Below are positions 171-64,000 of a stretch of 64,000 bases of DNA, piece after piece. The stretch's first letter is position 1, and every line of letters starts with the position of its first letter. The notes below the pieces were generated by a model. It was not told where the DNA came from and did no database searches. It saw nothing but the letters and a program-made list of their open reading frames with translations. A program made the translations under genes and the position numbers. The stretch is from positions 97,226 through 161,225 of the forward strand of contig JACRIK010000021.1 of the NCBI GenBank assembly GCA_016235865.1, written 5' to 3'. The DNA is from Planctomycetota bacterium (GTDB lineage: Bacteria; Planctomycetota; MHYJ01; JACQXL01).

Positions 171-230
171 AGAGCGTAGAGCGTATAGTAAATTCCTTAA
201 CATCTATGCTATAAGCCCTATGCTCTAAGC
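171..230. repeat. repeat family A (agagcgtagagcgtatag ... ctatgctataagccctatgct)
   Basis: same bipartite architecture as 4479-4534. Confidence 0.7.
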
Positions 231-238
231 TGTAAATT

Positions 239-3869: not shown

Positions 3870-4472
3870 ATGTACAGCAAGATTAGTTTGGAAAAATATC
3901 TGGAGATGATAGCGGCGCCGACGGCCACGCCGGGCGGCGGGAGCGTTTCGGCATACGCCGGAGCCCTGGGCGCATCGCTGGGCAGTATGGCCAGCGGTAT
4001 CGCGCTCAAGAAGGTGCTGGCCCATTCGCATGATTTTGAGACGCTCAAGGAAGCGCAGAAGATATTCCGCCGGAATTATTACGCGCTTTTGAAACTGGCC
4101 GAGGCGGATAGCGCGGCATACGATAAGGTTAGTCAGGCATATAAACTCCCGCATCACGTCCTTAAGCGCCGGGGCGAGATTAACAAGGCCCTTAAAGCCG
4201 CCACAGAAGTGCCGTATAGGACAATGCTCCTGTCGCTGGAAAACCTCAACGAGATAAGCAAGGTCCGGAAACTTCTGCCGGTCCAGATATTGAGCGACAT
4301 CAACGTGGCGGCCCTGCTCAGCAAAGCGGCTTATAACGGGGCCCGGCTGAACGTTATTGTCAACGTCGAATCGCTCACTGACAAGAAGGTCTCGCGCAAG
4401 ATAGAAAAAGATATAGAGAAGGTGGAGCAGGCATTTGCCGAGACCATTCTCTGGCTTGATGATTGGATGTAG
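3870..4472 (+). CDS. cyclodeaminase/cyclohydrolase family protein (formiminotetrahydrofolate cyclodeaminase-like)
   Basis: 200 aa; 'AAPTATPGGGSVSAYAGALGASLGSMA' typical FTCD C-terminal-domain family. Confidence 0.75.
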   Translation: MYSKISLEKYLEMIAAPTATPGGGSVSAYAGALGASLGSMASGIALKKVLAHSHDFETLKEAQKIFRRNYYALLKLAEADSAAYDKVSQAYKLPHHVLKRRGEINKALKAATEVPYRTMLLSLENLNEISKVRKLLPVQILSDINVAALLSKAAYNGARLNVIVNVESLTDKKVSRKIEKDIEKVEQAFAETILWLDDWM

Positions 4473-4478
4473 GAGCAA

Positions 4479-4534
4479 AGAGCGTAGGGCGTATAGCGTA
4501 GAAACTATAAGCTCTATGCTATAAGCTCTATGCT
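4479..4534. repeat. repeat family A copy
   Basis: agagcgtagggcgtatagcgtag...ctataagctctatgctataagctctatgct. Confidence 0.7.
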
Positions 4535-5141: not shown

Positions 5142-6269
5142 TTATTTAACCTTGAAATCAAAGTCAGAGGCATCGCCTTTGGTAATCCCGCGCAGTTCCA
5201 GTTTCAGTTCATCAGGCCGGTCCGCAAAGGCCAGGGCATCTTCCACGCTGATGAAATTATTCTGGTAGAGGTACTTTAACGACTGGTTAAAGGTCTGGGT
5301 GCCGTAGTAGGTATTGCCTTCCTTGATGGCATCATATAATTCGCGGGTCTTGCCTTCATAAAGCATATCTTTGATAGTCGGCGTGGCCAGCAGTATTTCA
5401 GCGGCCGGAACCATTCCCTTGCCGTCGTGCCGGGCGATTAACCGCTGGGAAATCACGCCCTGCAGGAGCATCGACAACTGCTGGCGCAGAAGTGGATGCT
5501 GGTGGGGCGGAAAGAAATTGATAATCCGTTCCACGGTCTGGAATGAATTGATGCTGTGCAGGGTGCTGATGACCAGGTGACCGGTTTCGGCCGCACCGAT
5601 GGCCGCTTCCATCGTGTCTTTGTCGCGCATTTCGCCGATCATAATGATATCCGGGCTCTGGCGGACCGCATGTTTCAGCGCCGAGGTGAATGAAAACGTG
5701 TCAATTCCCAATTCTCTCTGGTCAATCAGTGATTTTTCGTCCATAAAGAGGTATTCTATCGGGTCTTCTATGGTGACCACGTGTTTGCGCCAGTTTTTAT
5801 TGATGTAATTTATCAGGGCGGCAATGGTGGTGGATTTTCCGCTGCCGGCGATGCCGGTGACAATGACCAGACCGCGGGTGGTGGTAGCTAATTTCTGCAA
5901 CGGTTTCATTGGTAGTCCCAGTTCTTCTATCGGCGGGATATTGGAGCGGATATAGCGCATGGCCATTCCGATAAAACCTTTTTGCCTGAAAATATTTACC
6001 CGAAACCGGCCCATGCCAAAGACCTCATAAGCAGTATCCACTTCACCCTGGTCCACGAATTTTTGCCTTAATTTTTCAGTGGTGATTTCCAGGAAGAGTT
6101 TTTCTACCATCTCCGGGGTGAGCGGGAAAGTCTGAGGGAGAACTTCCAATTTTCCGGTCAGTCGGATCATGGGTGGGGCGCCGACTTTGATGAACAAATC
6201 AGAGGCGTTCTTGGCCACCACGGCGGCAAATAATCCCTTGACGTCTAATTCCTTTTTAGTTTCAGACAT
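5142..6269 (-). CDS. pilT: type IV pilus retraction ATPase PilT
   Basis: 375 aa; Walker A GSGKSTT, PilT/PilU family signature regions. Confidence 0.85.
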   Translation of the reverse strand: MSETKKELDVKGLFAAVVAKNASDLFIKVGAPPMIRLTGKLEVLPQTFPLTPEMVEKLFLEITTEKLRQKFVDQGEVDTAYEVFGMGRFRVNIFRQKGFIGMAMRYIRSNIPPIEELGLPMKPLQKLATTTRGLVIVTGIAGSGKSTTIAALINYINKNWRKHVVTIEDPIEYLFMDEKSLIDQRELGIDTFSFTSALKHAVRQSPDIIMIGEMRDKDTMEAAIGAAETGHLVISTLHSINSFQTVERIINFFPPHQHPLLRQQLSMLLQGVISQRLIARHDGKGMVPAAEILLATPTIKDMLYEGKTRELYDAIKEGNTYYGTQTFNQSLKYLYQNNFISVEDALAFADRPDELKLELRGITKGDASDFDFKVK

Positions 6270-9294: not shown

Positions 9295-9458
9295 AGGGGT
9301 AATTAATCCTGCAGTATATATTATTTTGTAAACTGTGTCTACGTTTTGGGATTTATTCTTTGACGATGGCTAGTGGTTTTTGGTATAGAATAAAGGTAAT
9401 GAACTAAGCGAAGCGTGAACTCGAAGAGGCCGCGAAGCGTGACCCTGAGCGAAGCGAA

Positions 9459-10826: not shown

Positions 10827-11642
10827 ATGACAAATATTCATCCGACGGCCATTATTGACAAGAGCGCGGAGATTGACCAGAGCGTTACCATCGGTCCATA
10901 TACGACTATCGGGCCTGATGTCAGAATCGGCGCGGGTAATATTATCGGCCCTTATTGCCATTTTGAATCGCATACCACTATCGGCCGGAATAATAAGTTC
11001 CTGGCCTATTGCAGTGTTGGCACCCCGCCCCAGGATGTCGGCTACAAGAATGAGCCGACCCGCCTGATTATCGGCGATAATAATACCTTCAAGGAATTTG
11101 TCACGCTCAACCGCGGTACTATGAAGGACAGGCAGGAGACGGTTATCGGCAACAATAATTATCTGATGGCATATGCCCATGTCGGACACGACAGCGTTTT
11201 AAGCAATAATATCATTATGGCCAACGCCGTTCAGGTGGGCGGACACGTTCACATAGAGGATTACGCGGCTTTAGGCGGGATGGTCGGGGTTCACCATCTG
11301 GTTACTGTTGGAGCCCATGCTTTTATCGGAGGAATTGCCCGGGTGATTCAGGATGTGCCTCCCTATATGATTGCCGAAGGCCATCCGGCCAAGGTGCGCG
11401 CCCTTAATGCCATCGGCCTGGAAAGAAGAGGGTTCCCGCCGGAGATTATCAGCGCTTTAGAAGCGGCGTACAAACTTATCTGGCGCGGTAAGATAACAAC
11501 CGCCGAGGCATTTCAGAAACTGCTTTCGCCTGAAAAGAATCCCTGCAAAGAGGTTCAGTATCTGATAAAATCACTGCAAAACACCCGGGACGGCAAACAC
11601 GGGCGCTATCGCGAATCGCTCCGCAAGGTGCCGGCCAGGTAG
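10827..11642 (+). CDS. lpxA: acyl-ACP--UDP-N-acetylglucosamine O-acyltransferase
   Basis: 271 aa; left-handed beta-helix hexapeptide repeats, LpxA family. Confidence 0.85.
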   Translation: MTNIHPTAIIDKSAEIDQSVTIGPYTTIGPDVRIGAGNIIGPYCHFESHTTIGRNNKFLAYCSVGTPPQDVGYKNEPTRLIIGDNNTFKEFVTLNRGTMKDRQETVIGNNNYLMAYAHVGHDSVLSNNIIMANAVQVGGHVHIEDYAALGGMVGVHHLVTVGAHAFIGGIARVIQDVPPYMIAEGHPAKVRALNAIGLERRGFPPEIISALEAAYKLIWRGKITTAEAFQKLLSPEKNPCKEVQYLIKSLQNTRDGKHGRYRESLRKVPAR

Positions 11643-11708
11643 TCAATAGTGAATTGTGGAATGCGAATTGTGAATTGACTAATCCGCAATCCGCAATTCG
11701 TATCCATT

Positions 11709-15267: not shown

Positions 15268-16119
15268 ATGTTGCCGTCCTGGTTAAAACAGAATAAACCA
15301 TCGCTGGGCAAATCCATGGCAATTAATAATATCATCAAGAGTCATGGTCTTCATACGGTCTGCCAGAGCGCCAAATGCCCCAATATCTTCGAATGCTTTG
15401 CCAAAGGCACGGCTACCTTTATGATTCTGGGCGATGCCTGCACCAGGCACTGCCGGTTCTGCTCGGTCAAGAAACAAGCGCCTCTGCCGTTGGCTTCCAA
15501 TGAAGCGAAGGAAGTGGCGGATGCCTGTTGCAAGATGAAACTAAAACATGTCGTGATTACTTCGGTTACCCGCGATGATTTGCCGGACGGCGGGGCAGGC
15601 GTATTCTATGATACGATTATGGAAGTGCGTAAGACGTCTCCTGGAGTGGCTATTGAGGTCCTGACTCCGGATTTCCAGGGTAATCAAACAAGCATCCGCC
15701 AGGTTGTCTCAGCCCAACCCGATATATTTAATCACAATATCGAAACCGTGCCCCGGCTTTACTCCGAGATTAGACCCGAAGCGGATTATCAGCGCTCATT
15801 AAAACTGCTGGCCTATGTTAAGGAGTTAAACCCGGCCATGCGGACCAAGTCAGGCCTGATGTTGGGATTAGGAGAAAGAGAAGACGAGGTGCTGTCGGTG
15901 CTCAAAGACCTGAGGGTCGTGGATTGCGATATGGTTACCATCGGTCAATACCTGCGCCCGTCATTAAGCGCCGGAACCGTGGAGGTGGCCAGATTCGTCC
16001 CGCCCGAGGAATTCGAGGCATACCGCGCCAAGGCATCAGAGATGGGTTTTAAGGCCGTGGCCTCGGGTCCTTTTGTTCGCTCGTCATACATGGCTGCGGA
16101 GTTGTACGGAGTTCGCTAG
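15268..16119 (+). CDS. lipA: lipoyl synthase
   Basis: 283 aa; radical-SAM CxxxCxxC (CTRHCRFC) plus N-terminal auxiliary cluster cysteines. Confidence 0.9.
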   Translation: MLPSWLKQNKPSLGKSMAINNIIKSHGLHTVCQSAKCPNIFECFAKGTATFMILGDACTRHCRFCSVKKQAPLPLASNEAKEVADACCKMKLKHVVITSVTRDDLPDGGAGVFYDTIMEVRKTSPGVAIEVLTPDFQGNQTSIRQVVSAQPDIFNHNIETVPRLYSEIRPEADYQRSLKLLAYVKELNPAMRTKSGLMLGLGEREDEVLSVLKDLRVVDCDMVTIGQYLRPSLSAGTVEVARFVPPEEFEAYRAKASEMGFKAVASGPFVRSSYMAAELYGVR

Positions 16120-16138
16120 CGCGGTCACTGCGGTGTTC
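16096..16138. repeat. repeat family B module Y overlapping lipA stop codon
   Basis: gcggagttgtacggagttcgctagcgcggtcactgcggtgttcc. Confidence 0.85.
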
Positions 16139-16275
16139 CGATAATTTCGGGGAAGAATTAGGATTAACCCCTCGACTTCGCTCGGGATAAGACATTGTAA
16201 CGTTCTCCCGCCCCAAAGGGACGGCATAACTAACAATCTCTAAAGTTTAGCCGCTAAACAACCGAGAGTCATATA

Positions 16276-20163: not shown

Positions 20164-22026
20164 ATGAATTTTCTGCGTAAAATATTTAAGAAGAAAGCGC
20201 AGGTTGATCCTGCCAATGATCCTAACATGGTAAAGGCCTATGATGGATATGGTCGGGAAATATTTATCTCCAAACAGCAATGGAAGGACAAGGTACTCCT
20301 GAAGAATCTAGAGGAGAAACGCAACAATCCTAATCAGCTTTATGATTGGCTTTTCTTGGCACTGAAAGATGGATTTGTGCAAGATATTGTTCCTTATGCC
20401 GAGCATTTATGGCGCACTGACCCTATTCCATCCAGGGGAGCCGCAGTACTCGGTATTGTCTATATGAAGAATAACCGCTTGGATGAGGCGGAACGAGTAT
20501 TAAATGATTTCCTGTCAGCACATGGCGATAATGGGGTTGTTCTGACTAACTTGGCAAAGGTATACGATAAACGGGGGGATAAAGCAAAAGCCGAATCAAT
20601 TCTTTGGCATGCCTTGGAGGTTGACCCTAATCAGGAAAATGGGCTTGCTTGGTATATTGCAATTCAGAGTGAGCGGGGAGGCGAAGCGTCGGTACTCGAT
20701 GCCTATCATCATATCGCCGCTTGGCCCAAAAGCTGGAGGGTCCAGCTTTGGTTGGCGCGTGAGGCGCTTGCACGCAAAGATTTGCCAGCTGCGGAGGCAT
20801 TTTACGCGGAAGTATTTGCCAGGGCTGAGCGTCCGGTTCCCGATTATGTCCTTACACAAATAAGTGGAGACTTAGGTAAGAACGGATATCTGGCAGAGAT
20901 GTTTCGTCTGGTCGAGCCTCATTTTGACCCGGCTATTCACGGCTTTAATGTTGGAAATAATCTTATAATGGCCAATCGTGAACTTGGTCGCACAGATATT
21001 GCCCGGCGTATTCTAAATCAGCTTTATGCCCAGAAACGTCCTGATTGGCAGCATGCGTTAAAGTACTGGGACACTGAACTTGCCAAAGACGAAGTAGCGC
21101 GCAAGGCGCAACAAAACCCCGGACAATCTATTGTTTTCATTTCAACAGAAGGTCCGTTATGGGCAAGTAAGGAATCCCCATTTGCAGTTCTCATGCCGGC
21201 TAAATCTGGTAACACACCGCAGATTGCCGTTTTGGGAAGCATGGCCTTGTTTTCGGAGTTATCCAAAAAGCCTGTGCCTCAACTCAGCGATGCTCCGGGC
21301 CGTATCAGCCGGATTGTTGCTCTTTTTCTGGCTGAAAAAATCCACCTTCAAACCGATGCGGTTGGTATAGCTTTAACTCCTTGGGCGCAAAAACTAGGGT
21401 TTGCTGTTTTTGGTAATCCCTACGGCGACAAGGATCTCTGTGAAGTTGCATGTAAGAGTGTGAAAGTTCCGCATTTTATCGTTGCTGTCAATTTTGATGC
21501 TACCCAGTTAAAATGGAAAATGATACTACGCTTATTGAGGGTGAGTGATTGTGTGCGTGTTGCAGAAGAACAGATTGAAGCCGATCCGCTGAATCCCGGA
21601 CCAGCTATTGAGCTTTTAGCTCAAACGCTTCAACAGTTGCTTGCTAAATACGCCGGGGTGCATATTACGGCACATCCGCAATGGTACCAGAATCTATCCG
21701 GACCGGATTTATCTGACTATCTTCTGCGGCTTGAGCAACAACTTGCAGTAATATGTAAAAATCTCGATTTCCTCGAAGGAGGAGGTTTGTTCGGGGAACA
21801 TGAAATCATTGATGGTGTTTTGCAACTCTGTCTAAGTCAGCCGGCAAGCCAATTGGTTAGAATGGTTCTGGCCCAAACGCTCCGGCAGATGAGCAAATTG
21901 CACCCGGAACTTATTTCCGAATATAAAGATAAGATTAATTTACTCCAACGGACTCATCTTCTGACAGGAGAAGTTGGCGAATTGATTAATAAAGCCATTA
22001 ATCAGACAATGACACGGACGGCTTAG
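20164..22026 (+). CDS. hypothetical protein, TPR-like N-terminal region; atypical codon usage
   Basis: 620 aa ORF; codon usage (cgt/gca/ctt, lower GC3) differs from neighbours. Confidence 0.55.
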   Translation: MNFLRKIFKKKAQVDPANDPNMVKAYDGYGREIFISKQQWKDKVLLKNLEEKRNNPNQLYDWLFLALKDGFVQDIVPYAEHLWRTDPIPSRGAAVLGIVYMKNNRLDEAERVLNDFLSAHGDNGVVLTNLAKVYDKRGDKAKAESILWHALEVDPNQENGLAWYIAIQSERGGEASVLDAYHHIAAWPKSWRVQLWLAREALARKDLPAAEAFYAEVFARAERPVPDYVLTQISGDLGKNGYLAEMFRLVEPHFDPAIHGFNVGNNLIMANRELGRTDIARRILNQLYAQKRPDWQHALKYWDTELAKDEVARKAQQNPGQSIVFISTEGPLWASKESPFAVLMPAKSGNTPQIAVLGSMALFSELSKKPVPQLSDAPGRISRIVALFLAEKIHLQTDAVGIALTPWAQKLGFAVFGNPYGDKDLCEVACKSVKVPHFIVAVNFDATQLKWKMILRLLRVSDCVRVAEEQIEADPLNPGPAIELLAQTLQQLLAKYAGVHITAHPQWYQNLSGPDLSDYLLRLEQQLAVICKNLDFLEGGGLFGEHEIIDGVLQLCLSQPASQLVRMVLAQTLRQMSKLHPELISEYKDKINLLQRTHLLTGEVGELINKAINQTMTRTA

Positions 22027-22077
22027 TGATACGACTTTCTAGTCCAGGGACACAACAAATTATCCTCCATCCTTACA

Positions 22078-22455
22078 GCGACCATAGAGTATCCCCTAAG
22101 CGGGGGCGGTCTATCCCCTAAGCGGGGATGGGCTATCCCCTAAGCGGGGAGGGGCTATCCCCTAAGCGGGGACGGGCTATCCTCTAAGCGGGGAGGGACT
22201 ACCCCCTAAGCGAGGGTGGACTATCCCCTAAGCTGGGAGGGGCTACCCCCTAAGCGGGGTGGGGCTACCCCCTAAGCGGGGATGGGCTATCCCCTAAGCG
22301 AGGTGGGGCTATCCCCTATGCGAGGTAGGGCTATCCCCTAAGCGAGGTGGGACTATTCCCTAAGCCGGGACGGGCTATCCCCTAAGCGGGGACGGACTAT
22401 CCCCTAAGCCGGGAGGGGCTACCCCCTAAGCGGGGATGGGCTATCCCCTATGCGA
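22078..22455. repeat. tandem array, ~17 copies of 22-bp unit CTATCCCCTAAGCGGGGATGGG
   Basis: head-to-tail copies with point variation, no spacers; stops in all frames. Confidence 0.9.
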
Positions 22456-22661
22456 GGATGGGGTATCACGGGTGCGGGGATGGGGGGAGGGGGGAGGGGG
22501 GATACCCCACCCCCCACCGTCTGAACCGGTTTTTGAGATAATAACTTTATGGATAAATGGTTACGCCAAAACCCGAGTGATTTTGGTAGCAGATTTCAGC
22601 CCGGATTACTTATTTAACGAGACATTAGACGACTTTTGGGGGTCGATATTGGCCTTTTGTT

Positions 22662-23636
22662 CTATGTCCCGCCAGAAGATAGGGCCAATGCGGCTGCGCC
22701 TAAGAGGCCGGCATCCTCGCCTAATTTGGCCGGGACAATCAGGGGCTTGCGATAGGGGTGTTTCATTATACTTGCCTTGACTACCTGACGCAGGGGTTTG
22801 AACAGAATCTCACCGGCCTGAGCCACTCCGCCGCCGATTACCACCATCTCCGGGTCAAAGATGTTAATCAGCGATGCGCAGGCCAGACCGAGATAATGGG
22901 CGGTGTCTTGAACAACTTCGCGGGCGAGTTTGTCGCCTTTTCTGGCTTTGTCAAATATTGTTTTAGCAGTAATGTCGTGCGTCTTGCGTCCTACGTCTTG
23001 CGTCCGGACGCCCAACGCATAACGCCCAACGCATAACGCATAGCGTTCTACAATGGCCGGTGCGCTGACCAGCGCTTCCAGATGCCCGGGTTTCCCGCAA
23101 CTGCAGTCCGGGCCATTGGGGTCTACGTTCATATGCCCGATTTCAGCGGCATAGAAATGCGAGCCGCGATATATCTGGTTGTCAATGATAATCCCGCCGC
23201 CTACGCCGGTGCCTAAGGTCAGGCAGATGAGATTCGTTGCTTTCTTCCCAGCGCCCCAGCATTTCTCACCCCAGCCGGCCAAATTGGCATCGTTGTCTAT
23301 GAAGACGGGTATTTTGAGCGCCTTCTCAAGCTCCTGTTTTACCTTCGTGCCTTTCCAGCCAATCAGATTGGGGGAGTCAGCCAGGATAATGCCTCTTTCA
23401 GCGTCAATAGAGCCGGGACAGGCGAGGCCGACACCGCGAACGGAATGACGAATGACGAATGACGAATGACGAATAACTTGATTGACTAATTGGGCAATGA
23501 GCCGGATGCCTTGTTTGCCATTGGGTGCTTTCGAGAAAGAGACCTTTTTCCTGGCCTTGATATGGCCGTTTTGGTCCACCAGCGCCGCGGTGATGTGGCT
23601 GCCGCCTAAATCGATACCAATAGCAAATTTGGTCAT
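22662..23636 (-). CDS. ROK family sugar kinase (glucokinase-like)
   Basis: 324 aa; 'KFAIGIDLGGSHITAALVD', CxCGxxGHLE zinc motif; contains in-frame repeat insertions. Confidence 0.8.
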   Translation of the reverse strand: MTKFAIGIDLGGSHITAALVDQNGHIKARKKVSFSKAPNGKQGIRLIAQLVNQVIRHSSFVIRHSVRGVGLACPGSIDAERGIILADSPNLIGWKGTKVKQELEKALKIPVFIDNDANLAGWGEKCWGAGKKATNLICLTLGTGVGGGIIIDNQIYRGSHFYAAEIGHMNVDPNGPDCSCGKPGHLEALVSAPAIVERYALCVGRYALGVRTQDVGRKTHDITAKTIFDKARKGDKLAREVVQDTAHYLGLACASLINIFDPEMVVIGGGVAQAGEILFKPLRQVVKASIMKHPYRKPLIVPAKLGEDAGLLGAAALALSSGGT

Positions 23637-23653
23637 AAGATGTATATAGTAAA

Positions 23654-23696
23654 ATCCCCCTTAATCCCCCTTTTGCAAAGGGGGAAGGGGGATTAG
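23654..23696 (-). terminator. nested poly-C/poly-G palindrome, candidate terminator for por operon
   Basis: atcccccttaatcccccttttgcaaagggggaagggggat, perfect nested inverted repeat directly downstream of porB. Confidence 0.4.
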
Positions 23697-23715
23697 AGCA
23701 AATAGTCCTATAACC

Positions 23716-24717: not shown

Positions 24718-24758
24718 AAAATTCCTTTCTTACTTAATTTTTGCGAAACGCCCCTTCC

Positions 24759-24827
24759 GTCATTCCCGTGTAAACGGGAATCCAGTAATCACATGGGGTC
24801 TGGATTCCTGCTTTCGCAGGAATGACA
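24759..24827. repeat. compound palindromic element (ATTCCC-N8-GGGAAT + ATTCCT-N8-AGGAAT) between porB and porA
   Basis: gtcattcccgtgtaaacgggaatccag...tggattcctgctttcgcaggaatgaca. Confidence 0.85.
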
Positions 24828-26074: not shown

Positions 26075-26134
26075 CTTAACGTCCCTTCTATAAGATACTT
26101 ACTTTTTTTACCGCGTCATTCCCGCCCCGTGTTT

Positions 26135-26227
26135 GTCATTCCCGCGAAAGCGGGAATCCACGGGATAAACTCCAGCGGGAATCTATACTTCTGGATTCCT
26201 GCCTACGCAGGAATGACAGAGAGTGAA
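26135..26227. repeat. compound palindromic element between porA and porD
   Basis: gtcattcccgcgaaagcgggaatcca...ctggattcctgcctacgcaggaatgaca. Confidence 0.85.
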
Positions 26228-26524: not shown

Positions 26525-26607
26525 ATTATTAATCTCCTTTTTAGAGCCAGTTAGGAACAGAGTGACTTACTGGGTCTTATCCCGGCAGTTTTTGCCGGGA
26601 CACCTCA

Positions 26608-39163: not shown

Positions 39164-39198
39164 ATATAAAACGTTATTCTGTCATTCCAGTCCCGCTT

Positions 39199-39330
39199 GT
39201 CATTCCCGTGAAAACGGGAATCCAGAGGGATAAACTCCGGCGGGAAGCCAGTCCCTCTGACGGGATGGTGGGAACCGTAAGCCCAAAGATGTCTGGATTC
39301 TGTGTCAAGCACGGAATGCCAGTTTAATAG
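39199..39330. repeat. compound palindromic element (partly degenerate) between ftsB-like and ruvB
   Basis: gtcattcccgtgaaaacgggaatccagagggataaactccggcgggaagcc...tggattctgtgtcaagcacggaatgcc. Confidence 0.7.
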
Positions 39331-40839: not shown

Positions 40840-40921
40840 ACACTTACTCCTATTCTTACTGGCTGTTAGACCGAAGGTCGTTACAGCCAGTTAGACCCCG
40901 CAGAATTGCGGGGCATTCATT

Positions 40922-41563
40922 CTATTTACCTTTTCTCCATTTTTCTATCTGCTGGTGATTACCCGAAACCAGCACCTCCGGGACAGTATGGCCCCGGAAA
41001 TCGCGCGGCCTGGTGTATTGGGGGTAATCCAGTTCATTTCCCTTGCTAAACGACTCCTGTTCAGCCGACGAAGCGTTACCCAAGACGCCGGGTATCAGCC
41101 GGATGACGCTGTCCATCACGACCATTGAAGGCAATTCGCCGCCGCTTAGCACATATCGGCCGATGGATATAATATCATCAAATTTAATAATGTCAAAGAT
41201 TCTCTGGTCAAATCCTTCATAATGTCCGCAGAGAATAATCAGCCCCTTTTTCTTACTCAAGGCCCGGGCCTTGGGCTGTCCAAAGGTCTTTCCGGCCGGG
41301 GTCAGGACAATCTTATGGGCATCTGAGCGCCCGTTGGCCTTAAGATACTCAAAAGCCCGGACAATCGGCTCGGCCAGCAGGAGCATTCCCGGCCCGCCCC
41401 CGAACGGACGGTCATCCACCTTATGGTGTTTGTCCGTTGAAAAGTCCCGCAGGTCATGGAGATTGATTTTAACCAGCCGCTTTGCCTGGGCCCGCTTGAT
41501 GATGCTCTCCTTTAAGAACCCCTTGAACATCCCGGGGAACAGGGTAATTACGTCAATGACCAT
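40922..41563 (-). CDS. trmD: tRNA (guanine37-N1)-methyltransferase
   Basis: 213 aa; SPOUT knot family 'MVIDVITLFPGMF'. Confidence 0.85.
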   Translation of the reverse strand: MVIDVITLFPGMFKGFLKESIIKRAQAKRLVKINLHDLRDFSTDKHHKVDDRPFGGGPGMLLLAEPIVRAFEYLKANGRSDAHKIVLTPAGKTFGQPKARALSKKKGLIILCGHYEGFDQRIFDIIKFDDIISIGRYVLSGGELPSMVVMDSVIRLIPGVLGNASSAEQESFSKGNELDYPQYTRPRDFRGHTVPEVLVSGNHQQIEKWRKGK

Positions 41564-41619
41564 AACCGGTAATCAATATCAAATATCCTGGATGTAGTCA
41601 ACAAAATGCAACCACAGAT

Positions 41620-41697
41620 TTCGCGGATGACACAGATTAAAAATAATCAGTGAAATCTGTGAACACCGCAGTGACCGCGACAGCGAAATCTGTGGTT
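41620..41697. repeat. AACCACAGAT...ATCTGTGGTT terminal-inverted-repeat element
   Basis: 10-bp perfect TIRs, internal cacagatt/aatctgtg sub-repeats. Confidence 0.8.
41663..41693. repeat. repeat family B module Y (reverse orientation), intergenic, nested in AACCACAGAT element
   Basis: RC = ttcgctgtcgcggtcactgcggtgttcac. Confidence 0.8.
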
Positions 41698-41709
41698 ACG
41701 AGGTTTCCC

Positions 41710-41738
41710 TTGACATTTCCGGCGGAATAATCTATATT
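41710..41738 (+). promoter_or_regulatory. sigma70-like promoter TTGACA-N17-TATATT
   Basis: TTGACA 41710-41715, TATATT 41733-41738; upstream of OM-barrel gene. Confidence 0.45.
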
Positions 41739-41866
41739 ATCCACACCTACATTGAGACAGCACCATTGATTTAACCAAACTTATACTTGTAATCCGTGGA
41801 AAACCTTATGTTCCTTCAGGGGTATATATAATAGAGGGAATTCCCCGACATTCAGAGGTTTCAACA

Positions 41867-42601
41867 ATGCAAGTAATAAGAAATCTTACTGTTCTTATAG
41901 TTTTAGGATGTTTTATCTCAGCCAGCGGCTGCACAAGCATGATAAATCGATCCAGTTATTCTTTAAGGACTTTAAGCACGTTAAGTGGAGCAGGTCTTAC
42001 CGTTACTGGTACCAAAGAAAGTAATGCCGTAAACCCCCAGTCACAAACCACCAGTTCAGTCAACAAGCAATCGGGAACAGAAAAGCCGGGCGGGAATGAG
42101 AACCAGTCCACATTCGCCTTGAGATTCGGTGATTATGTTTTTTATAATAAAAGCAATCGGGAATATTATGGCAGTAGCGTGGGCGATAATTCATTGGATA
42201 TGACTTTCGGAACGGCTAATCCCAATATTTCTTGGCGGATTGCGATTGACGGCGCGGCCACGGAATCAGACGAACTGTTTTTCGGCGGATTTTCCGGCTC
42301 GGTTGTTTTTCACACTTCACGGGCAGAAATGGTAAGATGGTTCGGCGGATTAGGTTTGGGCTCCTATTCGGCCGAAGAATATGGCGTAGATAACTATGGC
42401 TATTCCGTTTTGTATGAAGGACGCGGCATCGGCTATAAGGCGTTCGGAGGCGTTGAAGTTGCCTTATCATCCGGATTTGCTCTAAGTATGGAGCTGGCCC
42501 TGAGAGAACTGACAGCCAGAATGGCGGCTTCTAACGCATCAACTACAAATGTAAGTTACAGCGGACAGGCGTTACTTTTCGGATTAAACTTTAGTTTCTG
42601 A
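41867..42601 (+). CDS. putative outer-membrane beta-barrel lipoprotein
   Basis: 244 aa; signal peptide + lipobox-like SASGC; alternating beta-strand pattern; C-terminal ...LNFSF aromatic terminus. Confidence 0.5.
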   Translation: MQVIRNLTVLIVLGCFISASGCTSMINRSSYSLRTLSTLSGAGLTVTGTKESNAVNPQSQTTSSVNKQSGTEKPGGNENQSTFALRFGDYVFYNKSNREYYGSSVGDNSLDMTFGTANPNISWRIAIDGAATESDELFFGGFSGSVVFHTSRAEMVRWFGGLGLGSYSAEEYGVDNYGYSVLYEGRGIGYKAFGGVEVALSSGFALSMELALRELTARMAASNASTTNVSYSGQALLFGLNFSF

Positions 42602-42623
42602 GCCGGAGCGGAGGTAATAATAT

Positions 42624-43853
42624 ATGCCAATAAAGTTTATTAAGGTGGTTGCATCAGTATTGATTATAATCTGTGCTTTTATTCTTAACTATGGTTGCCT
42701 TGACAGTGGCGGGCATACACCGCATACTTCTCCTTCCGAACCGCCTCCCAAGATACCCATAATAGACGGCTGGGCTAAGATTTCAGCCGGATACGGGCAT
42801 ACCCTGGCCCTGCAAACCGACGGTACGCTCTGGGCTTGGGGAGATAATTCTTATAATCAATTAGGTTTGGGGGAATATTACTATTATTATGGGGATTATT
42901 ATGCGGGCAGTTCCGGTTATTATAACTATTATTCTAAAAATATTCCGACCATAGTTGGGAGCGATACGGATTGGGTTTCTGTGGCGGCCGGCGAGAAACA
43001 TAGTGCGGCCCTGAAAACCGACGGCACGCTCTGGGTTTGGGGCAACAACTCCGATGGCCAATTGGGCGACGCGACTCATACGTATAAAAGCACTCCGACC
43101 AAGATTAGCGACACTGATTGGGCAACTATCGCGGTTGGTTACAATCACACCATTGCGCTTAAAACCGGCGGCACGCTCTGGGCCTGGGGCAAGAATGATT
43201 TCGGGCAGGTAGGCGACGGCACAACCTTCAGCAAGAGCATTCCCACCCAGATTGGAATAGATACGAATTGGTCGGCGATTACCGCCGGGCAGGGGCATAC
43301 CATAGCATTGAAAAGCAATGGCGAACTCTGGGCCTGGGGCAAGAATGATTTCGGGCAATTAGGCGATGGAACAACGACATCTATAAACCAGCCAATTAAG
43401 ATAACCGGCACCAACTGGTCCGCGGCGGCTTGCGGCGCCAATCACACGGTAGCGCTGAAAAGCGACAATTCGCTCTGGGTTTGGGGCGACAACACCAGCG
43501 GCCAATTAGGCGACGGCACAATCATATCCCGGACCCAGCCCACCCAGATAACTGGCACCAACTGGGCCGGGATTGCCTGCGGCGCAAATCATACCCTGGC
43601 TACCAAGGCCGATGGCACTTTCTGGGCCTGGGGCTATAACTACTATGGTCAATTAGGCAATGGCATACCGGACAATACAAGCAATCCGATTCAAATTACC
43701 GGCACAACCTGGTCAATTATTGCGGCCGGCAGTGACCGTTCATCTGCCATTAAATCAGATGGCACGCTCTGGTCCTGGGGCAAAAATTATAGTGGCGCTT
43801 TAGGATTAGGCAATTATGCCGATAAATTTATCCCAACCCAGGTCGGGGAATAA
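42624..43853 (+). CDS. RCC1-repeat (beta-propeller) lipoprotein with Tyr-rich insertion
   Basis: 409 aa; seven 'DGTLWAWGxNxxGQLGDG' RCC1 repeats; N-terminal signal/Cys; 'YYYYGDYYAGSSGYYNYY' segment. Confidence 0.8.
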   Translation: MPIKFIKVVASVLIIICAFILNYGCLDSGGHTPHTSPSEPPPKIPIIDGWAKISAGYGHTLALQTDGTLWAWGDNSYNQLGLGEYYYYYGDYYAGSSGYYNYYSKNIPTIVGSDTDWVSVAAGEKHSAALKTDGTLWVWGNNSDGQLGDATHTYKSTPTKISDTDWATIAVGYNHTIALKTGGTLWAWGKNDFGQVGDGTTFSKSIPTQIGIDTNWSAITAGQGHTIALKSNGELWAWGKNDFGQLGDGTTTSINQPIKITGTNWSAAACGANHTVALKSDNSLWVWGDNTSGQLGDGTIISRTQPTQITGTNWAGIACGANHTLATKADGTFWAWGYNYYGQLGNGIPDNTSNPIQITGTTWSIIAAGSDRSSAIKSDGTLWSWGKNYSGALGLGNYADKFIPTQVGE

Positions 43854-43879
43854 CCGGAATTCTAAGAAAGGATGCGATT

Positions 43880-44575
43880 ATGTCCGACTTCACTAAGAAA
43901 TCCTGGAAGTGCGTTGATATCAAGGATATTGATTGGGGCCAGAGGTTTGAGTTTAACGAGGATAAGGTGGATACCTATGTGTCGGACCTGCCCGGGGTCT
44001 ATCGCCTGGTTTATCGGACAATCCATGAGGGCAAGGATGGGTATTTTGTATTTTATAACGGCGAGACGGATGATTTATACAAGACACTGTGCGGGCATCT
44101 TAATCTCCTGAAGATTGAACTGCCACCGCCCAAGAATCCCTATAATGCCCCGGAGCATTGCATACAAAAGACCCTGCAGGAATACCCGTGCTATTTCAGG
44201 TTTATAATAGTCCGTTCAAAAAAGGAGCGGGTCCGGATTAAGAAGGAGCTTGATGATTCCATTATCCCCAAGGGCGAGATGGAATTCGCGGCCTGGGCCG
44301 ATAATTTCTTCCGGGTGTTGTCGGCCAACGCGGACAAGTGGTTTCCTCCGGCGGAGCGTCCTGCTGATTTTAGCGATGCTCTTGATAAATTTAATGACAA
44401 GCACAAGAAGTTTATGGCGTCCTATGATGAGCATCTCAAGGTGCAGATTAATCTTAGGGCCGCTGAGAAGAAACTGAAAGACGCCGAGCAGAAACTCAAG
44501 GATGAACAGCAGAAACGCAAGGAAGCTGAGAATGAAGGCGAGGAGTGGAAAGAGGGGAAGAATAAGCCGGACTGA
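43880..44575 (+). CDS. hypothetical protein with C-terminal coiled coil
   Basis: 231 aa ORF; weak GIY-YIG-like 'PGVYRL...GYFVFYNGETDDLYKTL'. Confidence 0.45.
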   Translation: MSDFTKKSWKCVDIKDIDWGQRFEFNEDKVDTYVSDLPGVYRLVYRTIHEGKDGYFVFYNGETDDLYKTLCGHLNLLKIELPPPKNPYNAPEHCIQKTLQEYPCYFRFIIVRSKKERVRIKKELDDSIIPKGEMEFAAWADNFFRVLSANADKWFPPAERPADFSDALDKFNDKHKKFMASYDEHLKVQINLRAAEKKLKDAEQKLKDEQQKRKEAENEGEEWKEGKNKPD

Positions 44576-44745
44576 TGATTAAAGCAACCCCCTGGACGGC
44601 TCAGGGGGACTGACCGATGACTGAAGCAACCCCCTGGATGACTCAGGGGGACTGACGGATGACTGAAGCAACCCCCTGGATGGCTCAGGGGGGCTGCGGA
44701 ATGACTGAATAAACCCCCTGGACGGTCCAGGGGAGCCATTTGCGG
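44574..44745. repeat. 4 tandem copies of ~42-bp unit each containing a CCCCCTGG..CCAGGGGG hairpin
   Basis: tgactgaagcaaccccctggatgactcagggggactgacgga x4 with point variation. Confidence 0.85.
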
Positions 44746-44788
44746 AGCGACAGCGGAGTCCCGACCAAATCGGGGAAGGAGTTTTGAT

Positions 44789-45490
44789 ATGCCACAACAC
44801 GATTTTATCCCTAAATCAGACCCGGGTATGGCTGCTTTCCTGCGGAATTTGGCCAATAAGATAGGCGGATATGCGGCTACCTTTAATCTGACCCCGGCTG
44901 AAGTGGCTTCGGCCAAGAACGATGCGGCCAGGTTTACCTATATCCTCAAGGTTCAGGAGGCGTATAAGACATTTAAGCAGGCGATTTCAGGGTATAAGGA
45001 TATGCTCCGGGATGGTCCTGGCGACGCTCCTGTAGGCGATCTGGTTTTTCCGACCATGCCGGCGGCTCCGGCCCTGGTTAACTCCGGTATTTTTCCCCGC
45101 ATTCGCAAACTAGTGGGCCGCATCAAGGCCACGCCTGGTTATACCGAGGCCATCGGCGAGGACCTCGGGCTGGTGGCAGATGAAGAGGCGATTGATATCC
45201 TAAACCTGAAACCGGTGTTGAAGAGCCGTCTGGATGGCGGGCGTCCGGTGATTATCTGGACCAAGGGGGCGGCTGGTTTCCTGGTCATCTACGTTGACCG
45301 GAAGGACGGCAAGGGATTTGTCTATCTGACCACCGATATGTATCCGGATTATATGGATAAATTCCCGGTGCCGGACGGCAAGGATGCGGTGGTCTGGGAT
45401 TATAAGGCCATTTACAAAATCGGTGATGAACAGGTCGGGCAATTCTCGGAGCCGATTTCGGTCACCGTGACCAGGCAACCCGGGGGGTAG
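44789..45490 (+). CDS. hypothetical protein
   Basis: 233 aa ORF with host-like codon usage; no recognisable motifs. Confidence 0.45.
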   Translation: MPQHDFIPKSDPGMAAFLRNLANKIGGYAATFNLTPAEVASAKNDAARFTYILKVQEAYKTFKQAISGYKDMLRDGPGDAPVGDLVFPTMPAAPALVNSGIFPRIRKLVGRIKATPGYTEAIGEDLGLVADEEAIDILNLKPVLKSRLDGGRPVIIWTKGAAGFLVIYVDRKDGKGFVYLTTDMYPDYMDKFPVPDGKDAVVWDYKAIYKIGDEQVGQFSEPISVTVTRQPGG

Positions 45491-45595
45491 AATTAAGGAA
45501 AGATTCACCACAAAGGACACAAAGAATTAATTTTTCTGCGTAATCTGTGGTCGAATTTACTTGACATTTCTTGCCTTCTGTTTCACAATTGAATT

Positions 45596-46168: not shown

Positions 46169-46228
46169 CAAAGGGGGATTAAGGGGGTTATAACCCCCTC
46201 GCCCCCTTTAATAAGGGGGAATGGGGAC
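46159..46228 (+). terminator. cluster of three poly-C/poly-G hairpins overlapping stop codon
   Basis: cccccttaacaaaggggg, gggggttataaccccc, ccccctttaataaggggg. Confidence 0.4.
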
Positions 46229-46435
46229 GAGAATAATTTATACAGGGTATGCAGTTTTTCGACCCTCTCAAACATTCTATATATTAGGAAATGCCCCGAT
46301 GTCGCTATGCTCATCGGGGTCTAAGAGCCAGTAACTCGCTACGTTGACCTGCGCGCCCCGACCCCGAAAGCATTCGGGGCGGGGTTCTCGGAGTCACGCT
46401 TCGCTTAGTTCTAACTGGCTCTAAGAGAGGAATAT

Positions 46436-54460: not shown

Positions 54461-55873
54461 TCATTTCCATTCGATAACAGGTGGAATATCCTGAACGCTA
54501 AGCCAGGTTTTATTCGCAAGCGTTAGGGTGGTTCGTGTGTTATCAGGAAGAGTATAGGTAATTGTTTTTTTGCCATTTATGACTTCTTGTACCTGCGCAT
54601 CCGGGTATAATTTATTCAGAACCTTTTGATACGCATTAAACGATTCGTAGGCATCGTTATCTGAATCCCATATGGTCGAGAGGAATAAAACAATATCCTT
54701 GGTTTTATTGTTTTGGAGCAGGAAATATTTATCGCCATCCCAGCCCTCCGATGCCTCGCCGGCTTTTCCTTTGGCATAACTGCTGAATAGAATCCAAAAG
54801 CCGAATTCCCCCATGGTGTTTTCGGCCAGTATGGTCCATTCATCGCCAGCCTGGGGCGGTGTAATCGATTCAGGGGTATCGCGCGGTTCGGCCAATTTTT
54901 TGGTATGAATCATCTGTTCGGTTGATATAGGCGGATTCTTATATGTCCCGCTAACCAGCTGCCAGTTTTTTTGCTTCTCATCAATGGTCACCATGGTATG
55001 AATGGAGTAGGCGCCGTGGTAATAAGGCGCTATCAGCAGCCAGAAAAGATAATCCGGCACATCCTTGAGGGCTATTATGGATTCATATAAGTCAGGCGCT
55101 GTTTCTTTATACTGTTCAGCCATTGATGTTGATAACTCCAGTAAATCTTTGCGCCCCAGATTTTTGTAGCGGCTGAAAGCCATTTCCATCATCGGGCTGT
55201 CCGGCGCAAAGGTGATGCCCATTTTCTCTAACTGGGCAATGGTCATGACATAAGTGGCTTCTCCTTCTACCAGATATCTGATAGCGGTTTCCTGGTCGCT
55301 ATTATTCGCTGTTTTGATCAGTTTTCCCAGGTCATAATACTGGTCCTGGAGGGCGTGAGTCAGTTCGTGGATAACCATGGTTTCCATTTCCATCTGCGGC
55401 ATATTGATTTTTATGAAATACATACACTTGGTTTCGGGGTCATAATAAGCTCCGGCCTGGCTGACCAGCAGGTTTTCCAGTCCTTTTTTCATGTCATAAT
55501 TCTTGGGTAACAATCCCAGTTTAGATAATGCCAGCTGGTTCCATCTGCTTTCCTCATCAAATGATTTATCCAGGTCTTTTTTCACGAAAGTCCTAAATTC
55601 CTCAACGGATTGTACCGCTCCTTTGACATCAGACTTAAACTTCTTGCCGCTGATTCTTTCCACGATTTCCTGGCAGGATTTCAGGTTGACCGGGATTCCC
55701 GGCGTAGCAGCGGCGGAGTCCGCCGGCGCGGTCACTGCGGTTGTTCCCCGAAGGCTTTCGGGGGGCGCAGCGGCTGATTTGTCATCCGGTTTATTACTGC
55801 CGCCAGCGCAGCTAATAGAGGCGATAGAAATTAGTGTCAATGCTAATACTAAGGCAATATGTTTTTTATGCAT
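54461..55873 (-). CDS. putative lipoprotein zinc metallopeptidase (HExxH)
   Basis: 470 aa; lipoprotein signal 'LISIASISCAG'; 'MVIHELTHALQDQ' HExxH motif. Confidence 0.5.
   Translation of the reverse strand: MHKKHIALVLALTLISIASISCAGGSNKPDDKSAAAPPESLRGTTAVTAPADSAAATPGIPVNLKSCQEIVERISGKKFKSDVKGAVQSVEEFRTFVKKDLDKSFDEESRWNQLALSKLGLLPKNYDMKKGLENLLVSQAGAYYDPETKCMYFIKINMPQMEMETMVIHELTHALQDQYYDLGKLIKTANNSDQETAIRYLVEGEATYVMTIAQLEKMGITFAPDSPMMEMAFSRYKNLGRKDLLELSTSMAEQYKETAPDLYESIIALKDVPDYLFWLLIAPYYHGAYSIHTMVTIDEKQKNWQLVSGTYKNPPISTEQMIHTKKLAEPRDTPESITPPQAGDEWTILAENTMGEFGFWILFSSYAKGKAGEASEGWDGDKYFLLQNNKTKDIVLFLSTIWDSDNDAYESFNAYQKVLNKLYPDAQVQEVINGKKTITYTLPDNTRTTLTLANKTWLSVQDIPPVIEWK
55709..55765. repeat. 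repeat family B module Y inside lipoprotein peptidase gene, plus poly-C/G hairpin
   Basis: gcggcggagtccgccggcgcggtcactgcggttgttccccgaaggctttcgggggg. Confidence 0.85.
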
Positions 55874-62798: not shown

Positions 62799-62813
62799 AT
62801 ATCAAGAATAGTA

Positions 62814-62858
62814 ACCACAGATAAACACAGATTAACACTGATTTTATCTAATCTGTGC
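62814..62858. repeat. AACCACAGAT-family palindromic element
   Basis: aaccacagataaacacagattaacactgattttatctaatctgtgc. Confidence 0.7.
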
Positions 62859-62920
62859 TACTCCATTGCCATAGTAATAATTCATATCTGGTATCGACCA
62901 GGAGTTTTTCTCTCCATTAT

Positions 62921-63019
62921 CGTCATTTCCGTGTAAACGGGAATCCAGTATTAGGTTTTTGGATTCTTCCTGAGTTTAATACGTAAATGCCTGGACTCCT
63001 GCCTTCGCAGGCGTGACAA
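62921..63019. repeat. compound palindromic element between GAF-HD-GYP gene and valS
   Basis: gtcatttccgtgtaaacgggaatccag...ctggactcctgccttcgcaggcgtgaca. Confidence 0.75.
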
Positions 63020-63079: not shown

Positions 63080-63123
63080 AACCACAGATTTAATTATCTG
63101 TGTATATCTGTGTAATCTGTGGT
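63080..63123. repeat. AACCACAGAT-family palindromic element abutting valS stop
   Basis: aaccacagatttaattatctgtgtatatctgtgtaatctgtggtt (3 direct ATCTGTG + inverted CACAGAT). Confidence 0.8.
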
Positions 63124-64000
63124 TTATAGTTCTCTTAGCGATTCCTTCAGATTTGCTTCCTGTTTGGCCAGTTCTTCCTGCCTGAGCAATTCTTTTTGGA
63201 GAATGGCCTGGGGCGCCCGTGATTTGAAATTCTCGTCGGATAATTTATTGGTCACTAAAGCCAGTTGTTCCTTGATTTTGATCAGGCGCTGTTCCAGCCG
63301 TTTTTTCTCCGCCTCCGGGTCAATAATTCCCTCCAACGGTATGAAAAGCTGCAAAGCATTGACGATTTCGGTGGCCGAGTGTTTGGGTTTGGCCAGTTTT
63401 ACGCCCATCTCTATCTTACCCAGATTAGCCTGATGCTTAATCAGTTCTTCATGCGGCCGAATGCCGTCCAGCGCTTTGCTCACTTCAGCCGAGATAATCA
63501 GGTCTAACGCCTGCTTGCGCTCGATTGTCATCTTATTGCGGATATTCCGGACACTCCGGATGATGCCGATATTTATTTCCATTGTCTGCTCAATCTGCTC
63601 GTCTATCTGCTTGGGCTCGGCCGACGGCCAGGTTGCACTCATCACTGATTCGCTCTGGAAATGTTCCGGATATTGCTCCTTAAACTTCTGCCAGAGTTCC
63701 TCGGTGATAAACGGGATGAAGGGATGGAGCATGCGCAGGGTATTGCTGAAGAGATAAAAAAGCGTAGAGCGTGTAGCGTTGAGCGTAGAGGCGTCTTGGC
63801 TGTATAATCTTGGCTTGATGATTTCCAGATACCAGTCGCACAAATCGCTCCAGAAGAAGTGGTAAATCAAGTGGGCCGCCTCGCTGAATTGGTAGGTCTC
63901 TAAGGCCTTGGTATAATCGCGGATGGTGGTGTTCAGGCGGGAGAGAATCCAGCGGTCTTCGAATGTGTCGTGCGTTGTGGGTTGTGTGTCTTGGGTTTTT
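63124..64000 (-). CDS. valS: valine--tRNA ligase, C-terminal part (gene continues beyond window end)
   Basis: 'DRWILSRLN...SEAAHLIYHFFWSDLCDWYLEIIKP' and C-terminal coiled coil; frame stays open to 64000. Confidence 0.8.
   Translation of the reverse strand, partial: KTQDTQPTTHDTFEDRWILSRLNTTIRDYTKALETYQFSEAAHLIYHFFWSDLCDWYLEIIKPRLYSQDASTLNATRSTLFYLFSNTLRMLHPFIPFITEELWQKFKEQYPEHFQSESVMSATWPSAEPKQIDEQIEQTMEINIGIIRSVRNIRNKMTIERKQALDLIISAEVSKALDGIRPHEELIKHQANLGKIEMGVKLAKPKHSATEIVNALQLFIPLEGIIDPEAEKKRLEQRLIKIKEQLALVTNKLSDENFKSRAPQAILQKELLRQEELAKQEANLKESLREL

Follow-up and report, generated by a model that had tools for sequence, protein, structure and literature searches.

Intergenic hairpins built of phased CACAGAT words recur in many bacterial phyla and in phages

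Repetitive extragenic palindromic (REP) sequences, bacterial interspersed mosaic elements (BIMEs) and REP doublets forming hairpins (REPINs) are palindromes linked to REP-associated tyrosine transposases (RAYTs), and are known in GTAG- and CGTC-tagged superfamilies (Di Nocera et al. 2013, PMC3733652). MITEs (miniature inverted-repeat transposable elements) are exemplified by Correia/NEMIS in Neisseria and Nezha in Anabaena/Nostoc (Delihas 2011, PMC3184786), with target duplications of TA for Correia and 10 bp for Nezha (PMC6042816). Cyanobacteria also carry short tandemly repeated repetitive (STRR) heptamers and TAACTGA direct repeats, for which neither a transfer mechanism nor a binding protein is known (MacGregor 2015, PMC4679880). 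Here we describe hairpins with arms of phased CACAGAT words (E1, E2, E3 and a hybrid hairpin) in a 64,000-nt stretch of a Planctomycetota bacterium, hereafter the window (assembly GCA_016235865.1, contig JACRIK010000021.1, positions 97,226 to 161,225). Because the same repeat recurs between the genes of bacteria from many phyla and also in phages, we take it to be, in all probability, a mobile element of wide distribution and not a site of local regulation. To our knowledge, the known small repeats of the REP, MITE and STRR kinds are either essentially lineage-specific or have only a 4-nt tag in common. The CACAGAT hairpin family as such is apparently undescribed; the tandem words were not found in the literature searched, which returned only unrelated primers or nothing.

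The coordinates of the four hairpins and of adjoining features are given in Table 1. The 5' arm of E1 consists of AACCACAGAT, TTCGCGGAT and GACACAGAT, followed by an A/T-rich loop, and its 3' arm of ATCAGTG (41646–41652), ATCTGTG (41655–41661), a 24-nt insert and AAATCTGTGGTT. Perfect inverted termini of 10 nt bound E1 and E3, those of E1 extending to 15 nt. The gene-proximal arm of E2 (AACCACAGAT/AAACACAGAT/TAACACTGAT) is intact, and its distal arm has decayed to ATCTAATCTGTGCT, with a right end that reads ATCTGTGCTA. E3 has three units on its valS side (ATCTGTGTAT/ATCTGTGTA/ATCTGTGGTT), its distal arm being reduced to one, AACCACAGAT. The hybrid hairpin joins a 5' arm of CACAAAG words (TTCACCACAAAGGACACAAAGAA, built on a different word, CACCACAAAGGACACAAAG) to a 3' arm of the CACAGAT family (TTCTGCGTAATCTGTGGTCGAA). 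All four folded significantly more strongly than shuffled sequences, the predicted energies for E1 being -36.0 kcal/mol on the plus strand and -42.7 kcal/mol on the minus strand (z -5.3 and -6.5, respectively). The 10-mer AACCACAGAT is perfect at five window sites (41610(+), 41688(-), 62813(+), 63080(+) and 63115(-)) and occurs with at most one mismatch at 11, compared with 2.84±1.67 in shuffles. Tandem CACAGAT pairs (four) and inverted 10-mer pairs (two) were both absent from the shuffles. Without its insert, E1 aligns with copies from Phycisphaerae and phages at 77% mean column identity, part of the loop included. Rfam covariance models returned a single tRNA for the window at the gathering score, and nothing meaningful at E<=1 around E1.

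The first-pass annotation of the window had reported three elements and a half-site. The elements are real, with revised limits: E1 begins at 41610 rather than 41620 (10 nt off), and E2 spans 62813–62860. The half-site turned out to be the 3' arm of the complete hybrid hairpin, and the sequence concerned, ATCTGTGGTC, lies at 45543–45552 instead of 45549–45559. Perfect termini had been ascribed to all three elements, which is correct for E1 and E3 but not for E2, where only the left terminus is intact. Internal CACAGAT repeats were borne out by 15 heptamers in the window (5.7±2.7 in shuffles), as were the example string, at 63094–63122, the nesting of a family B repeat of exactly 24 nt in one copy and the sigma-70-like promoter downstream of E1.

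Table 1. Hairpins and adjoining sequence features in the window
Feature	Position	Strand	Remarks
trmD promoter, -35-like box TTGACT	41596..41601	-	Outside E1, 8 nt from its left end; conserved in relatives without E1
E1, full hairpin	41610..41697	.	Aligns, without its insert, with copies from Phycisphaerae and phage contigs
Family B unit AACACCGCAGTGACCGCGACAGCG, 24 nt	41662..41685	.	Nested in the 3' arm of E1
Sigma-70-like promoter TTGACA-17-TATATT for ORF 41867-42601	41710..41738	+	12 nt outside the right end of E1
Hybrid hairpin	45504..45555	.	Upstream of the -35 box of the fumarase gene (45561), 8 nt away
E2	62813..62860	.	Starts 15 nt past the HD-GYP stop codon
E3	63080..63124	.	Last base overlaps the valS stop codon (1 base)

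Genomes were scanned, one per species, for AACCACAGAT-N(11-71)-ATCTGTGGTT, an inverted 10-mer pattern of the kind that the first-pass annotation had proposed as a check for further copies. Matches were found at at least 120 loci in species-representative genomes; by our own arithmetic, chance would yield about 33 matches in 596 Gb. The counts of context, spacing and flanks given for the family here refer to the matches listed rather than to a full census. Extra internal CACAGAT-like units, which the pattern does not demand, were present in 111 of 124 matches, with a unit period of 10 nt in 78, 9 nt in 24 and mixed in 9. The phyla represented include Cyanobacteria, Bacteroidota, Acidobacteriota, Planctomycetota, Chloroflexota, NC10, Nitrospirota, Nitrospinota, Verrucomicrobiota, Omnitrophota and Proteobacteria, among others. 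Carriers comprise isolates (Nostoc, Scytonema, Calothrix, Tolypothrix, Pedobacter and Desulfonema magnum) and metagenome-assembled genomes (MAGs), some with Mb-size contigs, of the listed phyla from Acidobacteriota to Proteobacteria (Planctomycetota including Kuenenia) and of Treponema. The locus binned as Chitinophaga (L015) is essentially the same, hairpin included, as the one on the Kuenenia contigs L014, L044, L070 and L076; it is probably mis-binned, and thus the taxon labels of MAGs in the match list need care.

Viral contigs of IMG/VR yielded 17 stretches for the pattern and 2 for a shuffled 10-mer. One of these contigs, which encodes terminase gpA, capsid and cement proteins, holds three copies, each placed after a gene. 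Most CACCACGGAG matches and a few CACCACAAAG matches in viral contigs are true word hairpins. An inverse-orientation control gave 16 stretches in viral contigs, one of its matches spanning two adjacent copies (L131); it is a poor control, because its matches are mostly one conserved 36-nt phage sequence and none of them has word-array arms, and the shuffled 10-mer is the usable one. A BLAST search with the consensus hairpin gave one partial plasmid match and no match in cultured phages, possibly owing to low-complexity filtering.

The hairpins share one layout: AACCACAGAT is followed by one or two units of 2–3 bases plus CACAGAT and by a free loop, after which the arm recurs in mirror image. 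The units of each arm, usually three, form a phased array in which the 7-nt CACAGAT is separated by 2–3 free bases; three units per arm is the commonest form (55 of 139 distinct hairpins from the listed genome and viral loci). The core words are CACAGAT (167), CACGGAT (39) and CGCAGAT (13), the 10-nt form having GAA, AAA, GGA or GCA as spacers and the 9-nt form TT, TA, TG or GA. The outermost unit is invariably (A/C)CCACAGAT, i.e., ACCACAGAT, with GTGGT on the other arm, and the position-specific unit order AACCACAGAT-GAACACGGAT-GAACACAGAT recurs in phages as well as in unrelated phyla. The spacers of mirrored units are complementary in 47 of 137 unit pairs, compared with 14.0±3.3 (maximum 27) when arms were shuffled among the listed loci; such complementarity at variable positions indicates a genuine palindrome or hairpin, not just two arrays of sites. 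The stem has a median length of 26 bp and consists of A/T-rich periodic words with near-perfect pairing, the order of units being mirrored in 42 matches and swapped in 26. Loops are unconstrained, as seen in two copies at L093 with unrelated loops and arms identical at 30 of 30 positions.

Beyond the arms, the flanks tend to prolong the palindrome (tga/AACC...GGTT/tca), the left one being A-rich and the right one T-rich, and lineage-specific A/T-rich extensions lengthen it further. The Nostocales copies (L009, L066, L113, L116, L005 and L115) form the core of a 115–125-nt palindrome, CTTGCAAAAGT...ACTTTTGCAAG; the palindrome of heterocystous cyanobacteria has outer arms of CTTGCAAAAGTCAAATTTATGAAAAT with the CACAGAT hairpin at its centre. 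Six copies within 8 kb in Opitutales have a common loop. Two sister word families, CACGGAG and CACAAAG, use the same terminal ACCAC...GTGGT grammar.

Among the 98 listed copies whose context could be classified, 63 lie between co-directional, 23 between convergent and 12 between divergent genes, and at least one gene lies upstream of the copy in 86. Co-directional copies are at a median of 41 nt from the upstream stop codon and 71 nt from the downstream start codon (40 vs 23, p=0.006), and often fill the entire intergenic spacer. In tandem contexts, the arm on the side of the upstream gene retains more perfect units than the distal one (21 vs 8). BLAST clustering of 1,264 flanking open reading frames (ORFs) revealed no conserved neighbour, and Pfam matches of the 73 nearest small ORFs were to housekeeping families, e.g., AhpC, RRF, HisB and GroES. 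A flank rule involving four helix bundle (PF05635)/GxxExxY proteins was discarded as a general one, as these 73 ORFs include no PF05635 and a single PDDEXK_3. In an Opitutales MAG (L039, 1838–5917), six CACAGAT hairpins separate the genes of a glycosyltransferase cluster.

In the window, E1 lies between trmD (minus strand, 40922–41563) and an unannotated ORF (41867–42601) that heads a cluster of RCC1-repeat genes. Its position between two promoter-like -35 boxes reflects the landing place of one copy. E2 is next to a GAF/HD-GYP gene and E3 next to the convergent valS. The surroundings of E1 differ among close relatives. In L142 (TrmD 73% identical), trmD directly adjoins the fumarase C-terminal-domain gene in divergent orientation, and in L139 (TrmD 94%) the two genes are neighbours about 420 nt apart without E1, the -35 box of the fumarase gene being accompanied by no more than a relic, GGTGAAATCTGTAGAT. 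L140 (TrmD 93%) lacks E1 as well; it has another gene upstream of trmD, and its nucleotide homology with the window stops exactly at 41609/41610, the outer end of E1. These layouts imply that positions 41610–45560 are extra relative to those genomes. This block of about 4 kb comprises E1, the ORF 41867–42601, an RCC1-repeat protein gene, two unannotated ORFs and the hybrid hairpin, and is placed between trmD and the fumarase C-terminal-domain gene; it looks like a hairpin-bracketed accessory insertion.

The valS/HD-GYP junction, which holds E2 and E3, was compared in four relatives at about 80% identity. In L143 (ValS 79%), the spacer is homologous to that of the window (79% identity) and contains orthologs of both E2 and E3; L143 and the window alike retain the arms next to the genes, while the distal ones have decayed; the proximal arm of the E2 ortholog has 1 mismatch in 31, and the E3 ortholog retains three proximal units. 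L144 (ValS 81%) carries at this junction a hairpin, AAGTTGATAAG, whose words are quite different. The junction of L234 (ValS 80%) is a 75-nt spacer with a member of another hairpin family that also occurs in the window. This family, GAGCCAGTAAC...GTTACTGGCTC, is found at window positions 26525–26607, 40840–40921 and 46290–46430, and its member in L234 (3855–3910) takes the place of E2 and E3. Hairpins of other tandem words are common in the genomes sampled.

The dispersal of the family, its genome-specific subfamilies, its constrained arms and free loops, the nested mini-repeat, its presence in phages and its replacement among relatives point to a REP/MITE-like element recognised in trans. We therefore favour, with about even confidence, the explanation that E1, E2, E3 and the hybrid hairpin are copies of a non-coding, non-autonomous dispersed palindrome of this type, 45–90 nt long, whose arms are recognised by a factor acting in trans. 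Intergenic spacers would acquire copies, lose them or have them replaced, for the most part immediately downstream of stop codons. The mover would be a putative trans-acting protein that reads the word arrays of the arms, with a transposase or a recombinase as candidates, or else recombination between the conserved arms, and phages could plausibly carry copies from host to host. After its insertion, a copy could form a long DNA or RNA hairpin that would incidentally affect neighbouring transcription or mRNA processing, and it would then decay.

The earlier description of the elements as MITE-like accordingly stands in part: they are dispersed, non-coding and bounded by inverted repeats, are absent or replaced in close relatives, and occur in other genomes and phages, but the target-site duplications of a MITE are missing, and its transposase partner was not seen in the flanking DNA covered. 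Several observations weigh against a mobile palindrome. Direct repeats of 2–8 nt, looked at as signs of the target-site duplications that the first-pass annotation had suggested seeking, were at or near chance among 125 listed copies. Neither the window nor about 1.2 Mb of DNA flanking the copies showed a transposase, a RAYT or an integrase near them. None of the relatives compared offered a clean empty site, since the 'empty' ones were either rearranged or had other elements, and the persistence of orthologous copies at about 80% protein identity means that movement is not frequent. The better-kept gene-proximal arm hints at a sequence-level function of one arm, which a purely selfish model does not predict. 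Finally, many matches come from MAGs, and at least the label of L015 looks mis-binned; the spread over several phyla is still supported, because isolates (Nostoc, Scytonema, Pedobacter and Desulfonema magnum) and Mb-size contigs carry copies.

The strong predicted folds would also suit a cis-acting RNA structure under selection at the 3' ends of genes, which would be processed by RNase III, hold up 3' exonucleases or act as a terminator/insulator. Its transcript duplex of about 26–30 bp could be likened to the intergenic RNase III sites of T7 and to the effects of Correia and ERIC, and the position of most listed copies, tens of nucleotides past a stop codon or filling a co-directional spacer, the placement of phage copies after genes, and the complementarity of the arms at variable positions agree with it. 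We nevertheless consider this explanation rather unlikely. Isolated G·T and A·C mismatches relative to gene direction (15 vs 11) were uninformative and gave no strand-specific G·U excess. The copies are not followed by a U-tract on the sense strand, where A upstream is more abundant than T downstream (p=0.009). A scan with a terminator consensus drew a blank at E2 and E3, and at E1 it picked no more than a 5-bp sub-stem, located at the left end and on the minus strand; flank composition and terminator scans thus argue against a sense-oriented intrinsic terminator. Moreover, the decayed distal arms of E2, E3 and the L143 orthologs destroy most of the stem, and the retention of the same words in different phyla is left unexplained by a structural role. 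A DnaA box, a CsrA site and an RNase E site were also considered, and none fits the conserved core. A second alternative is that the arms are phased arrays of sites in duplex DNA for a sequence-specific protein, be it an operator or iteron array or the target of a nucleoid-associated or partition-type protein, by which E1 would co-regulate the divergent trmD and RCC1-cluster promoters. The 7-nt core is better conserved than the 2–3-nt spacers, the phasing is 9–10 bp, identical arms occur with unrelated loops, and both ends of E1, as well as the hybrid hairpin, lie close to -35-like boxes (8 and 12 nt from E1, and 8 nt from the fumarase box). However, only 12 of the 98 listed copies are in divergent promoter regions, the neighbours are unrelated housekeeping genes in at least a dozen phyla with no linked regulator, and an array of sites does not require complementary spacers. 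TTGAC-like boxes near the ends (8.8% vs a background of 4.3%) are only 2-fold enriched, mostly through one Nostocales subfamily, and the -35 box of trmD is already present in relatives without E1, so that an outward -35 box is not a part of the element. The array would further need a protein conserved from Cyanobacteria to Bacteroidota and phages, and we know of none. We hence regard it as quite improbable. The operator array of a regulon proposed at first pass finds no backing in these data, nor does the suggested correlation with promoters, E1 alone being promoter-adjacent; for the annotation of the window, the repeats give no evidence for a regulon over the RCC1/outer-membrane cluster.

An origin in place is a further alternative, in which replication slippage and template-switch 'quasipalindrome correction' would create the hairpins without any transfer, and the words common to different phyla would reflect mutational or compositional convergence. 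The same genomes do contain many hairpins of tandem 7–10-nt words (e.g., AGTGACG, CAAGTCC, GCGTATT and AAGTTGATA), the arms differ in unit number and sometimes have a swapped order of units, and relatives carry different words at the same junction. Convergence is hard to reconcile with the recurrence of the ordered units and of the terminal ACCAC unit in unrelated phyla and phages, the excess of the real over the shuffled 10-mer, or the sister families with the same terminal grammar. In addition, copies within a genome have common loops or outer extensions, which implies that whole elements were copied. This origin therefore appears very unlikely to us.

The preferred reading of a trans-recognised mobile palindrome can be extended, as a tentative possibility. 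The CACAGAT, CACGGAG and CACAAAG families may together constitute a pan-bacterial, phage-borne element, whose phased arms would be the recognition sites of a putative widespread protein, for instance a transposase or recombinase that binds hairpins or arrays, and whose copies may double as portable attachment or recombination sites that bracket accessory genes. The attachment-site idea would fit the block of about 4 kb around the RCC1 genes and two further loci. At L093, hairpins at 5326–5399 and 7585–7657, with identical 30-nt arms, similar right flanks and unrelated loops, bracket a 2.2-kb segment that encodes a RhuM-family protein and lies next to comEC, an arrangement that would be expected if hairpins serve as attachment or recombination sites. 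At L039, hairpins bracket a HepT-like toxin gene (4041–4514) and a PDDEXK_3 gene (5282–5716) in a cassette-like manner. If these ideas are correct, a non-coding sequence of 45–90 nt would be common, almost word for word, to about a dozen phyla and phages, implying either a very widespread mobilising or binding protein or a horizontal route for non-coding DNA. They would also provide a handle on the 'word hairpins' with which intergenic regions are crowded in Planctomycetes, Cyanobacteria, Acidobacteria and Chloroflexi, and which would mark rapid intergenic turnover and sites of accessory-gene insertion.

The window contains further repeats of several kinds. The family B unit nested in E1 is a discrete 24-nt mini-insertion that also occurs at 7304–7363, 16107–16142 and 55714–55749, three of the window copies being inside or at the ends of long ORFs. 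In L139 (181–228), two family B units, one of them identical to that nested in E1, follow codon 2 of the fumarase gene in frame, whereas this gene has none in the window; in this respect family B resembles the in-frame palindromic elements of Rickettsia. A GAGCGTAGAGCG/GCATAGAGC word hairpin likewise lies within the valS reading frame, at 63746–63790 of the window and at 1145–1212 and 1563–1585 of L143, where one copy adds about 22 codons in frame; it has relatives at window positions 158–231 and 4466–4534. An intergenic tandem array at 22011–22538 has more than 20 copies of a 22-nt unit, CTATCCCCTAAGCGGGGANGGG, each with a small CCCC/GGGG stem. Between two unannotated ORFs of the RCC1 cluster (44570–44733), a 42-nt unit that contains a CCCCCTGG...CCAGGGGG hairpin is repeated in tandem three to four times. 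A dispersed repeat pairing GTCATTCCCGTGTAAACGGGAATCCAG with TCTGGATTCCTGCCTTCGCAGGAATGACA occurs at 24758–24827, 26134–26218, 39198–39245 and 62921–63018, with one copy between E2 and E3 that is partly conserved in L143; its ATTCCC-N8-GGGAAT core resembles dRS3 of Neisseria. Other word hairpins or arrays are located at 1784–1950, 9395–9458, 11640–11708, 22978–23045, 23649–23700 and 46169–46230, with the words GAGATGA, GGCAGAC, CGAAGCG, GTGAATTGTG/CGCAATCCG, TGCGTCT and AAGGGGGATT; the genome is thus crowded with word repeats.

Compared with known systems, the CACAGAT hairpins share with REP sequences their short, non-coding, multi-copy, palindromic nature, their intergenic position, often just downstream of genes, the absence of target-site duplication and the formation of genome-specific subfamilies, and REP superfamilies have likewise been reported from several phyla. 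They differ in having neither a GTAG/CGTC tag at the foot of the stem nor a conserved tetranucleotide in the flanks, and in their long, A/T-rich stem of 9–10-nt words, whereas the REP stem is G+C-rich and 20–40 nt. Furthermore, the whole sequence, not only a tag, is common across phyla and phages, and no RAYT accompanies it in the flanking DNA covered. With MITEs they have in common terminal inverted repeats, a similar size (50–170 bp in MITEs), and strong predicted hairpins, and like Correia, which affects promoters, termination and RNase III processing, they are gene-adjacent. Relatives differ in the copies they hold, which recalls the filled and empty sites of MITEs, but none of those compared had a clean empty site. 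For MITEs, insertion sequences with matching ends and target duplications exist; for the CACAGAT copies neither was found, the search for such an insertion sequence covering the window and about 1.2 Mb of DNA around the copies. The Nostocales palindrome may or may not be Nezha.

The STRR and TAACTGA repeats resemble the CACAGAT family as short intergenic tandem words with a puzzling spread (Cyanobacteria, Bacteroidetes and Beggiatoaceae). However, those are contiguous direct repeats of a heptamer (>=3 copies), mostly just upstream of start codons, while the CACAGAT core is spaced by 2–3 nt to a period of 9–10 nt, its array is repeated in mirror image to give a hairpin whose terminal unit is distinct, and the copies mostly follow stop codons. 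Integron attC sites are also imperfect palindromes (55–140 nt) found directly after ORFs in many phyla, with AAC...GTT ends, and the cassette-like bracketing of small accessory genes at L039, seen only there, recalls them. An attC identity was rejected, since the A/T-rich flanks (ttga/AAC and GTT/tcaa) do not fit RYYYAAC/GTTRRRY, the stems are near-perfect without an unpaired spacer or extrahelical bases, the neighbours are housekeeping genes, and no integrase is in the flanks. The heptad operators of ribbon-helix-helix proteins (e.g., omega of pSM19035) and plasmid iterons consist of 7-bp words in direct and inverted order with helical phasing, and are tied to particular promoters or origins on a single replicon, beside the gene for the binding protein. 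The CACAGAT copies are instead dispersed, mostly 3' of genes, with no linked regulator. Thus, by their defining tests, the family is not a MITE, a REP, an attC site, an intrinsic terminator, an STRR/TAACTGA repeat or a member of any Rfam family. It is best described as belonging among the small dispersed palindromic intergenic repeats, where it is unusual in its phased-word architecture and in its near-identical sequence across many phyla and phages.

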